DNA of 64,000 bases. Origin: Candidatus Dormiibacterota bacterium (GTDB lineage: Bacteria; Chloroflexota; Dormibacteria; Aeolococcales; Aeolococcaceae). Below, piece by piece: positions 20,565 to 24,119 of the stretch; the stretch's first letter is position 1; each line of letters opens with the position of its first letter. The stretch covers positions 300,918 to 364,917 of the forward strand of contig CAVPXI010000004.1 of NCBI GenBank assembly GCA_963709585.1. The letters run 5' to 3'. The notes under the pieces are model-generated. The model saw only the letters and a program-made list of their open reading frames with translations, was not told the origin of the DNA and made no database searches. The position numbers and the translations under genes were made by a program.

Positions 20565-22133
20565 ATGCACCGCCGGCTGGCGTGCCTGGCTGTGGCGCTG
20601 CTGGTCTCCGGCTGCGGCTTCAGCGGGCTCGGCTCACCTCCGAACTACGGCTACGTCGTGATCACCGCGGGCGGAGTTGGCCTCCGCTCCGGCTCCCAGG
20701 ACGTGCCCCCCAACCTCAACCTCCGGCTCCACGCCACCGGCGCGGCTCTGCAGGCCTCGGACGTGACCGCGACCCTCGATGGGAACCAGCTCTCGCTCGC
20801 CACCCAGGATCAGGACCTGCTGGCGACGGTGAAGCCGCTGCCGCTCTCATCGAGCCACCACCTCTCGGTCGCGGTGGCGGGGATGAGCACCCAGAACTTC
20901 GCGTTCACGGTCATCTCGCCGACCGCCGCGATGCTCGCCGCCCACGTCGATCCTGCGAGTGGGCTGGTCGTCGATGCCGTCTTCGACGATGCTCCCGACC
21001 AGGCCGCAGTGGCCGCCGCTCTTCCCGGCGGGACGCTGACCTGGGTCGACGGAACCCATGCTCGGATCACCTGGAGCGCCAAGCCGCCGGCATCGATCGC
21101 GCTCCCCGCCACCATCGCCACCGCCGGCGGTGCACACCTGGACCCGGGCATCAGCCTTTCGCTCGTCGGCATTGCTCGTCACACCATCCGGCGGGTGACC
21201 GTGCCGCCGCCACCCCAGGTCGCGGGCATCCCGGTTGACGCGTTCGTGATCAACACCGGAGCGTCGAACTCGTCACTCGCCTTTCACCTCGGCGCGGTTG
21301 CGCAGGTGACCCCGACCGGTTGGCAGGCACAGGCGGACGGCTCGATCCTGGGCACTCCGGATCAGTCCGCGACCGGCCGTGCAGCTGTCGCGGGTCTGCC
21401 CATCTGGCCGTCGCTCGCCAACGACTTGACGAACCCGCCCGCCACCGACCAACTGCTCAACGATCCCAGCGCGACCAAGGTGCTCGTCAACGAGATGGTG
21501 GCCGCGATCCGCTACGACGGCTATCGCGGCATCAACCTCGACTTCGAGGGGATGCTCCCGACCGACAAGGCTCCGTTCACCGCGTTCGTGGAGCAGCTGG
21601 CGACTGCGCTCCATGCCCGAGGGGCCAAGCTGATCGTCGACGTGGTCCCCCACGACTTTGCCGGGGTCAATGCGTACTCCGCCGCATACGACATCGCCGC
21701 GATCGGCAAGGTGGCCGACTACGTGGATCTGATGGCCTACGACGAGCACGGCGATGGGGGAACGCCTGGGCCGGTGGCTGGTCTGGACTGGGACCGGGCG
21801 GTCCTGCAGGCGACCCTGCCGGATCTCAACCCCGCGCACGTCCTCCTCGGTGTTCCCCTCTACGGGCGCGCTTGGGGCAGCCTCGGCGGCGCGGCCGCAT
21901 ATTCGAACGTCATCTACAACGCGCTCTTGATACCCGGAGCTCGCGTCGACTACGACTTCAGCGCTCAGACCCCCTTCATCGTCTCCCCGGACGGCTCGCT
22001 CACCACCTACTTCGACGACCGGGACAGCCTGGCCCGCAAGGTCGCGCTGGTCCGGACCGACGGCCTCGCCGGGATCGCCGCCTGGCGGCTCGGTTTCGAG
22101 GACCCGGGCTTCTGGTCGCTCTTCCGCGCCTGA
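20565..22133 (+). CDS. GH18 glycosyl hydrolase lipoprotein
   Basis: lipobox VSGC; GINLDFEG, LMAYDEH, LGVPLYG, AWRLGFED. Confidence 0.88.
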   Translation: MHRRLACLAVALLVSGCGFSGLGSPPNYGYVVITAGGVGLRSGSQDVPPNLNLRLHATGAALQASDVTATLDGNQLSLATQDQDLLATVKPLPLSSSHHLSVAVAGMSTQNFAFTVISPTAAMLAAHVDPASGLVVDAVFDDAPDQAAVAAALPGGTLTWVDGTHARITWSAKPPASIALPATIATAGGAHLDPGISLSLVGIARHTIRRVTVPPPPQVAGIPVDAFVINTGASNSSLAFHLGAVAQVTPTGWQAQADGSILGTPDQSATGRAAVAGLPIWPSLANDLTNPPATDQLLNDPSATKVLVNEMVAAIRYDGYRGINLDFEGMLPTDKAPFTAFVEQLATALHARGAKLIVDVVPHDFAGVNAYSAAYDIAAIGKVADYVDLMAYDEHGDGGTPGPVAGLDWDRAVLQATLPDLNPAHVLLGVPLYGRAWGSLGGAAAYSNVIYNALLIPGARVDYDFSAQTPFIVSPDGSLTTYFDDRDSLARKVALVRTDGLAGIAAWRLGFEDPGFWSLFRA

Positions 22134-22159
22134 GCCGAGCTAGATCCCATAAGTTGTTG

Positions 22160-23362
22160 TCAAGCTAATCCGGCGCTGCCATGCGCCGGATCGAAGTCCT
22201 TGTCGCCGCGCCACACGCCCCAGACGATGGCGAGCGCCTTGCTCATGCAGTGACCAAGGGAGTTCATCGCTGACTTGCCCGCGGCCCGCTTGCGAGCGTA
22301 GTGGGCGCGGATGATCGGGTTGTGTTGCACGCCGACCACCGCCATCCGGTACGCCGCCGCACGCAGATACGAGTTGCCGGTCTTGGCCATGGTCCAGCTC
22401 GTCTCGGGGTTCGCACCCTTCTTCCCTGAACTCTGCTCCTTGGGATGCACGCCTGCGTAGGCGAGCAACTGGTCGACATCGCTGAAGCGCCAGATGTCGC
22501 CGATCTCGGCCATGAGTGTGGCCGCGGTGGACGGCCCGACACCGGGAATCGAGAGCAGCCGCTGCGACACCTCGCCGTCGAGCAGGGAGGCGACCCGGGT
22601 GTCCGCGCTGGCGATCTGCTGGTCGAGCAGGTCGTGCTGCGCAATCAGGAGGCGCATCTCGAACCCGACCTGCTGCGCGAGTTCCGGCGCAGCCACCGAG
22701 GTCTGAGCCAGCTGCTTGAGCTGGCCGGCCTTGAGCGGTCCGATCGCACGGCCACCACCGCCCGGACGCTTGAGCCGAGCCAGGCGGTCCTGGTGCATGC
22801 GCGCCACGGCCGCGGCGGTCGGCGCGTGGCGGAGCACCGCCAGGGCGCTCACGCAGGTCGGGTCGTCCCAGACCTCGCGCAGCTCAGGAAAGCCGATGTC
22901 CACCAACCGCTGGATGCGCTGGCAGACCTGGGCCTGCTCACGCACCAAACGCATCGCGAACCGCGCCGCCTCCTTGAGCTCGGCCCCCACCAGGGGCTCG
23001 CTGATCCGCGGCTGGTCGTGCGTTCCCAACGCCGCCAGTGTGCGCGCGTCGGCCGGGTCGCTCTTGCTCCGCTGCAGCCGGCTCTTGGCGAAGTACTTGG
23101 CCTGCAACGGGTTCACCACCGCCACCGGATACCCCTGGCGACGCAGGTGGCTGGCCAGGTTGAACCAGTAGTGGCCGCTCGATTCCATCACCACCACCTC
23201 GATCGGCGCTTCCTGCTTCGTCATCCACGCGTCCAGTTCGCCGAAGCCCTTGCGCTTGGTGGTGATGGTGAGCACCTTCCGATCCGCCTCGCGCTCACCC
23301 TGGCGACACACCGCCGCCGCGCACTTGTATGCCCCCACGTCGATCCCCACCGCCAGGCTCAT
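22160..23362 (-). CDS. IS110 DEDD recombinase/transposase
   Basis: GIDVG, MESSGHYW, KSDPADA, SIPGVG, QSSG; SD AGGAGG. Confidence 0.95.
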   Translation of the reverse strand: MSLAVGIDVGAYKCAAAVCRQGEREADRKVLTITTKRKGFGELDAWMTKQEAPIEVVVMESSGHYWFNLASHLRRQGYPVAVVNPLQAKYFAKSRLQRSKSDPADARTLAALGTHDQPRISEPLVGAELKEAARFAMRLVREQAQVCQRIQRLVDIGFPELREVWDDPTCVSALAVLRHAPTAAAVARMHQDRLARLKRPGGGGRAIGPLKAGQLKQLAQTSVAAPELAQQVGFEMRLLIAQHDLLDQQIASADTRVASLLDGEVSQRLLSIPGVGPSTAATLMAEIGDIWRFSDVDQLLAYAGVHPKEQSSGKKGANPETSWTMAKTGNSYLRAAAYRMAVVGVQHNPIIRAHYARKRAAGKSAMNSLGHCMSKALAIVWGVWRGDKDFDPAHGSAGLA

Positions 23363-23374
23363 ACGCACCTCCTG

Positions 23375-23575
23375 TGTCGGGTTGCGACCCCAGGGGTCCT
23401 CGCCTTGCTTCGTCGCCGCGTGGGCTGATGCTCCATCACCGGTCACCGCCGTCGGATCCCAATCACCGCTCGAAGACGAAGCACGAGGGCCGGTCACTAG
23501 CTCCATCGGTCCCGTCGCCGGATAGCTATGCGCCGGTCTCCCCGTCGAGGTCAGATTCCCCGCGATTCTGACCCT
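23375..23575 (-). ncRNA. putative IS110 bridge RNA (boundaries approximate)
   Basis: 5' hairpin GGTCAGA/TCTGACC; internal segments match element end (TGGGATC) and target flank (GAGCTAG). Confidence 0.7.
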
Positions 23576-23588
23576 GCCAGGAGATATA

Positions 23589-24119
23589 TCAGCTTTCGGA
23601 AGCGCCGGTCCCGAGATCGGGGAGGTTGAGGGTGTTGACCCAGTCGCGAATCTTGGCGAGCCGCTCCTCGCTCTCCGGATCCGTCTCGGTCAGGTCGCCG
23701 TCCTTGTCGGCCTCGGGGAGGACGCCGGCCTTGTCGAGCACCTCATCGGCGACGAAGATGCCCGCTCCGACCCGCACGGCGACGGCGATGGCATCCGAAG
23801 GTCGGGAGTTGATCTCCAGGCGGCGTCCGTCGACCTGCGCGAGGATCCGTGCGTAGAAGACCTCGTTGCTCAGGGATGTCACCACGATCCGCTCGACGGT
23901 GACCTCCACCGCGCTGAGCAGGTTGGCAAGCAGGTCGTGCGTGATCGGCCGCTCGGGGGTGATCCCGGTGATCTTCAGCGCGATCGCGTTGGCCTCATTG
24001 ATGCCGATCCAGATGGGCAGGTAGCGGTCGGCCGACTTTTCTTTGAGGATGACGACGTGCTGGCCGGTCGGCATGTGCACCCTGATGCTGTCGACGGTCA
24101 TTTCCACCAGGTCGGCCAT
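23589..24119 (-). CDS. bifunctional nuclease (DUF151)
   Basis: LPIWIG..EA, RPITHDL, FYARI, SRPSDAIA. Confidence 0.92.
   Translation of the reverse strand: MADLVEMTVDSIRVHMPTGQHVVILKEKSADRYLPIWIGINEANAIALKITGITPERPITHDLLANLLSAVEVTVERIVVTSLSNEVFYARILAQVDGRRLEINSRPSDAIAVAVRVGAGIFVADEVLDKAGVLPEADKDGDLTETDPESEERLAKIRDWVNTLNLPDLGTGASES

Follow-up and report, generated by a model that had tools for sequence, protein, structure and literature searches.

The stretch of DNA analysed here, which we call the window, comprises 64,000 nucleotides (nt) of contig CAVPXI010000004.1 (positions 300,918 to 364,917, assembly GCA_963709585.1) from a Candidatus Dormiibacterota bacterium, and it carries on its minus strand, at 22144..23592, an IS110-family element of 1449 bp when a single CT core is counted. 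We hold it to be very probable that this element is an intact and probably active insertion sequence (IS) of the IS110 group that uses a bridge RNA of the IS621 type. Its ends, its empty site, the covariation within its RNA fold, the covariation of its guides with the flanking DNA, and the conserved catalytic residues of its recombinase were observed directly, while it is by analogy with IS621 that we infer transcription, circle formation, a complex of the RNA with the protein and the recombination chemistry. The element represents a known kind of system, here from an uncultured Dormibacterota lineage and with a reversed guide-length balance and a longer recombinase, and it involves no new mechanism.

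The ends of the element were placed from its copies, from uninterrupted sites in relatives and from contigs of public sequencing runs. The genome to which the window belongs holds three copies, which are 99.8-100% identical over 1460-1463 nt and have intact frames of 400 amino acids (aa). Their common sequence on the plus strand runs from AGCTAGATCCC... to ...GGAGATATATCAGCT, i.e. exactly AG...AG, and on the left the copies agree out to AGCTGATAT..., further right on the plus strand than the AGAT at 23582-23585. In the original prediction, which was made from the letters of the window, this AGAT and a second one at 22142-22145 had been taken as the ends, with the core lying within ATCT. In order to find the empty site, we used the DNA flanking the element as a query against 40 relatives and fetched 11 same-genus loci, of which 9 were recovered by script and 2 were left unmatched by the search pattern. 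An uninterrupted site, GAGC(C)TAG/CTYTCGGA, with both flanking genes and a single AG, was present in 9 of the 9 recovered loci, and neither the ATATATCAG stretch nor ATATATC occurs in any of them. The search in relatives that had been proposed thus did find an uninterrupted site, with a sequence differing from the predicted one, TGAGCCGAGCTAGATATATCAGC: for the window locus the real site reads ...GAGCT-AG-CTTTCGG.... The insert must run from 22144 to 23592 with CT as its core, because only so do the flanks in the window fit the empty site, where AG occurs once, while here it occurs at both junctions. The empty site holds a single CT, common to both junctions, and nothing else is duplicated.

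This joint, from 22140 across a CT to 23591, is also seen in contigs of a DNA run (X2) and of an RNA-library run (X16). These contigs differ from the window at 6-10 letters and therefore come from relatives, those of X16 being 90-95% alike. In other run contigs the element gives way to unrelated DNA, at 22136-22143 on one side and at 23593-23594 on the other. Compared with the original prediction, the left end has moved by 7 nt, beyond the AGAT that had been proposed, to a core CT (AG on the plus strand) at 23591-23592, and the predicted circle junction is altered with it. The condition that had been named as refuting the prediction, that the ends map elsewhere, therefore holds for this one end, while the other end stands with its core at 22142-22143.

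Comparison with related elements drew on 24 loci from species genomes, 19 of them titled Candidatus Dormi(i)bacterota, Dormibacteraeota, Dormibacteria or Dormibacterales, which agrees with the expectation of an IS110-family element from a poorly sampled lineage. A phylum-wide protein search, in which 3 of 401 genomes matched at E <= 1e-60 with the window's own included, added loci L042 and L043, and a further 80 loci came from metagenome contigs. The related set consists mostly of Candidatus Dormibacterota metagenome-assembled genomes (MAGs) and of soil or peat metagenomes. We kept 93 of the 109 loci on the basis of a conserved target-loop start; the 16 without this anchor are truncated or degenerate. 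For each guide test only loci with both partners extractable were used, and identical guide-flank pairs were merged. Of the 72 distinct left ends, 52 entered the fold alignment, A2, together with the window; near-duplicates, the longer L020-type left ends and those of L097, L105, L107, L109, L117 and L125 were dropped for alignment quality. L042 comes from a genome flagged as unpublished and accounts for one alignment row and one locus in the counts. Several relatives are partial or degenerate: L027 and L028 are gene fragments, L015 does not have the terminus CTGATATA, and in L024 the region upstream is a different one.

Among the related loci the left end starts with CTGATATA in 86 of the 88 found, with adjoining 7-nt flanks that are distinct in 79 of 85 cases. 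Five copies in a single distant relative genome (L020-L023 and L025) differ in the bases directly before CTGATATA. The 73 related elements with both ends range from 1383 to 1504 bp in length. In the window copy the left non-coding end is 228 nt long (23590..23363) and the right end is 16 nt long (22159..22144), so that the element has the IS110-group layout of a long left non-coding end, a short right end and the RNA in the left end. The end layout that separates the IS110 from the IS1111 group is taken from Durrant et al. 2024 (PMC11208160), and the statements on IS621 draw on that paper and on Hiraizumi et al. 2024 (PMC11208158).

The recombinase gene encodes a protein with matches to Pfam PF01548 (E 3.9e-26, 92.1 bits against a cut-off of 29) and PF02371 (Transposase_20; E 3e-23, 82.4 bits against a cut-off of 21.3), and it scores 205.4 bits, where the cut-off is 140, with the NCBIfam model for an 'IS110 family RNA-guided transposase' (NF033542). 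Its best relatives among the solved structures in the PDB are ISCro4 (E 2.7e-26) and IS621 (E 4.2e-24). Residues D8, E60, D102, D105 and S312 align with D11, E60, D102, D105 and S241 of IS621 (chain 8wt6_A), and all five are invariant in 8 relatives that are 62-93% identical. In IS621, mutating any of these residues abolishes recombination (PMC11208160, PMC11208158). Residues 5-123 and 267-393 can be aligned with IS621, and the middle region between them is about 75 residues longer than its IS621 counterpart.

A consensus structure for the left end was obtained with RNAalifold from the 52 distinct left ends. It begins with a 5' hairpin, followed by two modules of like design, each with an outer stem, an internal loop, a three-pair hairpin and another internal loop. 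After removal of 4 spurious long-range pairs the consensus has 39 pairs, which are 96.9% formed. Compensatory changes, with both sides altered, are seen in 19 of the 39 pairs, compared with 9.4 +/- 1.3 in shuffles (0 of 500 as high) and with 3-7 when the partners are slid by 1-3 columns. In helix 1, the 5' hairpin, 7 of 8 pairs have changed on both sides and 90.5% of cells are paired, and in helix 5, the outer donor stem, 6 of 8 pairs have both-side changes. The inner three-pair stems and the outer target stem are nearly invariant and so give little information on pairing. The check by covariation across homologues thus bears out the original reading of the non-coding left end as a bridge RNA with a 5' hairpin, a target loop and a donor loop, in that order. 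A free-energy fold of a single left end (z = -2.0) gave a different structure that was less informative than the alignment fold, and it was not used.

Between the ribosome-binding site and the donor module there is a conserved palindrome, GACCCCTGGGGTC (23386-23398, minus strand), which recurs with small changes in nearly all of the 52 aligned left ends. It could mark the 3' end of the RNA or serve in the regulation of translation.

The first loop of the RNA is complementary to the target in the pattern described for IS621, its 5' side to the left target flank (LT) on the bottom strand and its 3' side to the right target flank (RT) on the top strand, core included. For the right target guide (RTG), comparing the 5 bases before its AG with the 5 bases after the right-hand CT in 70 loci, which give 52 unique pairs and 33 distinct guides, we found a mean of 4.12 matches at the 5 non-core positions against 2.32 +/- 0.12 for shuffled pairs, and 0 of 10000 shuffles were as high; 26 of the unique pairs match at 5/5 positions and 16 at 4/5. 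Past +5 the related loci show no signal. For the left target guide (LTG), the bases before CU were compared with those before CTGATATA in 75 unique pairs, where the mean was 3.85 of 7 against 2.58 expected, again with 0 of 10000 shuffles as high. Identity at -4, -3, -2 and -1 was 0.42, 0.78, 0.81 and 0.89, against expected values of 0.22, 0.30, 0.34 and 0.73, and there was no signal at -7 to -5 or at registers shifted by -3 to +3. The RTG terminates in AG in 83 of 84 related loci and the LTG in CT in 84 of 86. In the window copy the RTG matches its flank at 7/7 positions, and for the LTG there are matches at -4, -2 and -1 as well as at the core; in the other two copies of the same genome the LTG matches at 6/7, and the RTG at 6/7 and 7/7. 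The LTG had been sought in GATA, and the true guide, CAUAGCU (23530..23524), lies just 5' of it.

The second loop is complementary to the junction of right end and left end, in the same strand pattern as in IS621. Its left donor guide (LDG) falls into the classes GGGATC, GGGACC and GGGTTC, which track the right end: agreement at the variable positions is 0.85 where 0.55 would be expected, a level reached in 2 of 10000 shuffles. Covariation thus upholds the assignments first made for the RTG (23497-23503) and the LDG (23455-23461), both of which vary with the flanks or ends of other copies. The LDG ends one base before the full core. In IS621 the LDG (A123-C130) is one nucleotide shorter than the LTG (A50-U58) (PMC11208160, PMC11208158), and the short LDG here may be the equivalent of this offset. 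The right donor guide (RDG) part of the second loop depends mostly on invariant complementarity: it reads ATCAG in 88 of 92 loci, and AUCAG is complementary to CTGAT in 84 of 88. A single locus whose left end starts with CTGAC has GUCAG, a compensated change. In 85 of 86 loci, among them 9 with an LTG(-1) other than G, the base following AUCAG is the complement of LTG(-1), and by analogy with IS621 it may act as a handshake nucleotide. When a donor handshake of two nucleotides was considered, only the first had signal.

The remaining donor-loop bases GAUGGAGC (23430-23439, minus strand) vary with the class of the right end, GGGATC occurring with GGAGC, GGGTTC with GGTGC or GGCGC, and GGGACC with GGGGG, GGGAC or GGGCC. 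They have no evident complementarity to anything, and shared ancestry or an unrecognised contact could explain the association.

With the corrected left end, a putative -10 element appears at the circle junction when this is built in silico. Such junctions read TTGACN-18-TGnTATAnn in 71 of 73 elements, and no sigma-70-like site was found in the integrated copy. The TTGACA (TGTCAA, 22158-22163) had been noticed before as overlapping the stop codon, at 22160-22162, and it had been added that no good -10 could be seen across the junction; this is true of the junction as then predicted, which gives none, but not of the corrected one. IS621 has been reported to rebuild such a promoter at its junction (PMC11208160, PMC11208158). 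At the usual start distance, transcription would begin at the foot of the 5' hairpin. Judged from its sequence, CTGATATA would serve as core, as target of the RDG and as extended -10 of this putative promoter at once. The contigs of one RNA-library (metatranscriptome) run, X17, fall only on 23393-23700, covering both guide loops, the left junction and the flank, with none on the recombinase gene. These contigs carry loose ends, the library may hold DNA, and the uncovered part is uninformative, so that they are at most a weak hint of RNA from the left end.

Together these features suggest a mechanism modelled on that of IS621. The element would excise as a circle, in which the right end (...TTGACA-N16) joined to the left end (GATATAT...) would build the promoter TTGACA-18 nt-TGaTATATC. 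Transcription from this promoter should start near the 5' hairpin and would yield an RNA of about 170-190 nt holding two internal loops, of which the target loop would read the target and the donor loop the circle junction. The nucleotide after AUCAG could pair with the last base of the left target after strand exchange, as the handshake. The 400-aa DEDD/Ser recombinase would then exchange strands at the CT core, giving an insertion with no duplication beyond the common CT.

Several points weigh against this interpretation. The relatives are kin, and some of the insertions may be inherited, so that the shuffles overstate significance; only identical pairs were merged. The flanks are taken from MAG and metagenome assemblies, which may be chimeric at repeats. 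In the window copy itself the left flank mismatches the LTG at -3 and -5. As the RDG and its target are nearly invariant, their pairing rests on complementarity, position and one covarying locus, and in 3 loci the guide facing CTGAT is GUCAG, so that the pairing would include a G-T wobble. Helix 7 pairs GAU with the AUC of the proposed RDG and never varies, and so it neither supports nor refutes the guide. A target-loop handshake between the base after the RTG and the left donor half (LD) gave no signal (1975 of 10000 shuffles as high). The proposed -10 hexamer, TATAnn, does not end in the T that is usual, and it follows an 18-nt spacer. An Rfam scan of 22000-23800 gave no family at E < 0.4 and no match to the left end; we did not establish whether Rfam 15 includes a bridge-RNA model. 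Finally, transcription, circle and recombination are inferred, and the public runs, being assembled contigs, are blind to RNA ends and to rare junctions.

Three other explanations can be weighed against the same evidence. The original prediction, that the ends lie at AGAT (ATCT on the minus strand; 22142-22145 and 23582-23585) with the core in ATCT, UAUC as the LTG, GGAG as the RDG and TGAGCCGAGCTAGATATATCAGC as the empty site, draws on motifs that all exist: besides the AGAT pair there are GATCCCA at 23455-23461 and 22143-22149, CTAGCTC at 23497-23503 against GAGCTAG at 22137-22143, CTCC at 23431-23434 and GATA at 23521-23524. When the mononucleotides of the 228-nt left end were shuffled 20000 times, the 7-mers turned up in 1.4% and 1.9% of the shuffles, and they are unlikely to be due to chance. 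In principle, GCTGATAT before ATCT could also represent one half of a target that is conserved. The 4-mers are not unlikely, TATC appearing in 26% of shuffles and GGAG, which has 4 real occurrences in the left end, in 91%. That placement of the ends needs an uninterrupted site with ...TAGATATATCAGC... in a close relative; the empty sites contradict this, and the absence of ATATATC from all nine of them and from the joint in two runs refutes it. Moreover, LTG positions -3 to -1 covary with the bases before CTGATATA, and the bases directly before it differ among the five copies of the distant relative. The GGAG/CTCC pairing shows no covariation (4827 of 10000 shuffles as good), and GGAG persists with at least 10 other left-end variants (ACGCGG, ACGCGC, CAGCCT and others) that are without CTCC. 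In the window's own genome the predicted empty-site pattern had 1 match with 3 mismatches, against 4 for the reversed control, which is uninformative. We give this placement of the ends practically no credence; the bridge-RNA reading as such is made stronger, not weaker, by the corrected ends.

It is scarcely more credible that the left end is a mere 5' leader of the recombinase mRNA, acting in translation control or stability, with the protein picking the target and the matches between loops and flanks reflecting shared ancestry. The RNA does lie directly upstream of the ribosome-binding site, the conserved palindrome at 23398..23386 stands between the two, and a small RNA and an mRNA leader are not told apart by any expression data. 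A leader leaves unexplained, however, why 33 distinct 5-nt loop sequences match DNA outside the element, why the second loop tracks the right end of the element, and why the nucleotide after AUCAG tracks LTG(-1); the strand pattern, with the 5' side in the same sense as the top strand and the 3' side complementary to it, is also that of IS621 (PMC11208160, PMC11208158). A third explanation accepts the bridge-RNA design and supposes that the window copy is a fixed resident that is no longer mobile. This is unlikely, though less so than the other two. There are only 3 copies, and only 2 sites in the genome come within one mismatch of the ideal 11-nt target; no circle or excision was seen in the same strain among the assembled contigs, and the joints, differing at 6-10 letters, come from relatives. 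Against this, the copies are 99.8-100% identical with their 400-aa frames intact, the catalytic residues, guides and stems are all intact as well, and loose ends in run X2 lead from the same element into additional flanks.

The bridge-RNA element favoured here resembles IS621 of E. coli (PMC11208160, PMC11208158) in most respects. Both have a DEDD RuvC-like domain and a Tnp domain with a catalytic Ser, a CT core, a long left and a short right end, and an RNA ordered as 5' stem-loop, target loop and donor loop. In both, the 5' loop sides read the bottom strand and the 3' sides the top strand, the LDG is one nucleotide short of the LTG, a handshake nucleotide, putative in the present element, follows the RDG, and a sigma-70-like promoter, predicted for the present element, is rebuilt at the junction of right and left ends. 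Unlike IS621, whose protein has 326 aa, the present element encodes one of 400 aa, and the sequence match between them is distant (E 4.2e-24). Beside the core, 3-4 nt of the LTG and 5 nt of the RTG are informative here, whereas in IS621 the LTG has 9 nt and the natural RTG 4 nt. The RDG here is a contiguous 5 nt while that of IS621 is split, and the right half of the donor, CTGATATA, is invariant across the present clade. IS621 is known experimentally and the present element from sequence alone. The best solved match, the ISCro4 transposase (PDB 9t56), has the same two domains, with residues 5-120 and 268-393 aligned at E 2.7e-26, and is 341 aa long. Elements of the IS1111 group, with their seekRNA, share the recombinase family and the RNA-guided two-loop design, but unlike the present element they carry the RNA in a long right end and have subterminal inverted repeats of 7-17 bp (PMC11208160). 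No repeats were noted at the ends of the present element, for which no search for subterminal repeats was made. A full-text literature search combining Dormibacterota with IS110 found no paper, the supplements of the bridge-RNA papers lying outside its coverage.

A tentative extension, which we regard as possible without leaning towards it, is that the Dormibacterota clade represents a natural bridge variant in which the labour of the guides is reversed. Target choice would depend on the 7-nt right guide and on 3-4 informative left bases, and the right half of the donor, CTGATATA, would be frozen because it doubles as the extended -10. A preferred target containing CTAG, a word very rare in the host genome, would keep the copy number low and would steer insertions to TAG stops and intergenic gaps. 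Within the 3.5-Mb genome to which the window belongs, 2 sites come that close (one mismatch or less) to the ideal 11-nt target, compared with 92 for a reversed control pattern. As a separate observation, the natural targets of the clade mostly contain CTAG, with G/CT/AG in 41 of the 69 loci tallied, and such targets may be rare by composition.

Bridge-RNA systems were characterised in cultured Proteobacteria and Firmicutes, and the element is a worked example from nature of how they are programmed outside these bacteria. It comes with dozens of guides that nature has reprogrammed, 33 distinct right guides having been matched to flanking DNA, and these define the loop positions read in this clade. 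As a compact high-GC orthologue with a different guide-length balance, it could be tried as an orthogonal recombinase. For annotation, it shows that terminal repeats alone cannot set the ends of IS110 elements, since empty sites and guide covariation shifted one end by 7 nt and changed both the target and the circle junction. The features identified are collected in Table 1.

Table 1. Features of the element and its junctions, with positions in the window and the evidence on which each was assigned (RD, right donor half)
Feature	Position	Strand	Evidence
Inserted IS110-family element	22144..23592	-	Own-genome copies (3), empty sites (9 same-genus genomes), contig joint, loose ends
Core dinucleotide CT, left copy (junction LT-CT-RD)	23591..23592	-	AG (+) is the only sequence common to both junctions
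Core dinucleotide CT, right copy (junction LD-CT-RT)	22142..22143	-	All right ends recovered among related loci (77/77) finish in CT
Left target flank LT, GAAAG (minus strand)	23593..23597	-	Bifunctional-nuclease-domain gene ends here and in the core
Right target flank RT, AGCTC (minus strand)	22137..22141	-	RT plus core fully complementary to RTG GAGCUAG
Invariant left-end terminus TGATATATC, RD plus proposed extended -10 of circle-junction promoter	23583..23591	-	Exact CTGATATA in 86/88 related left ends
5' stem-loop of bridge RNA	23547..23574	-	Helix 1
Target-binding module: outer stem, 12-nt 5' internal loop, CGG/CCG hairpin, 13-nt 3' internal loop	23484..23546	-	Helices 2-4
Left target guide LTG, CAUAGCU; informative -4 to -1 plus core CU	23524..23530	-	Covariation with left flank
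Right target guide RTG, GAGCUAG; 5 nt plus AG opposite core	23497..23503	-	Covariation with right flank
Donor-binding module: outer stems, 5' loop with LDG, CGG/CCG hairpin, 3' loop with RDG	23406..23483	-	Helices 5-8
Left donor guide LDG, UGGGAUC, same sense as right-end terminus through core C	23455..23461	-	Covariation with right end
Remaining 3' side of donor loop, GUGAUGGAGC; holds GGAG, no guide for left end	23430..23439	-	No covariation with left-end nt 10-13
Right donor guide RDG, AUCAG, complementary to core plus left-end start CTGAT	23425..23429	-	Complementarity, position
Putative donor-loop handshake nucleotide C, complementary to -1 of LTG and LT	23424	-	Role named by analogy with IS621
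Ribosome-binding site AGGAGG	23368..23373	-	Conserved in left-end alignment
Recombinase gene, 400 aa plus stop: RuvC-like DEDD domain, long middle region, Tnp domain	22160..23362	-	Pfam, NCBIfam and PDB matches
TTGACA, proposed -35 of junction promoter, overlapping stop codon	22158..22163	-	TTGACA in 66/73, TTGACC in 4, TTGACT in 3 relatives

A metagenome locus, L046 (1-2400), can be aligned with 21563-23592 of the window and carries the same element, identical at 1448 of 1451 nt, with a right flank identical at 557 of 579 nt to the end of the GH18 gene beside the window copy. Its left flank is unrelated and has no match in the window's genome, which is 88.8% complete. Either IS copies have rearranged with one another in a related strain, or the assembly of L046 is chimeric at the repeat.

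In the window the element sits between two convergent genes, one with a GH18 domain (PF00704) that ends at 22133 and one with a bifunctional-nuclease domain (PF02577) that reaches the left junction. The empty site would put their convergent stop codons only about 7 nt apart, and no terminator-like hairpin was found in 22000-23800. The nuclease-domain gene ends in ...AGC TAG at the empty site and in ...AGC TGA with the element in place, and its protein is unchanged.

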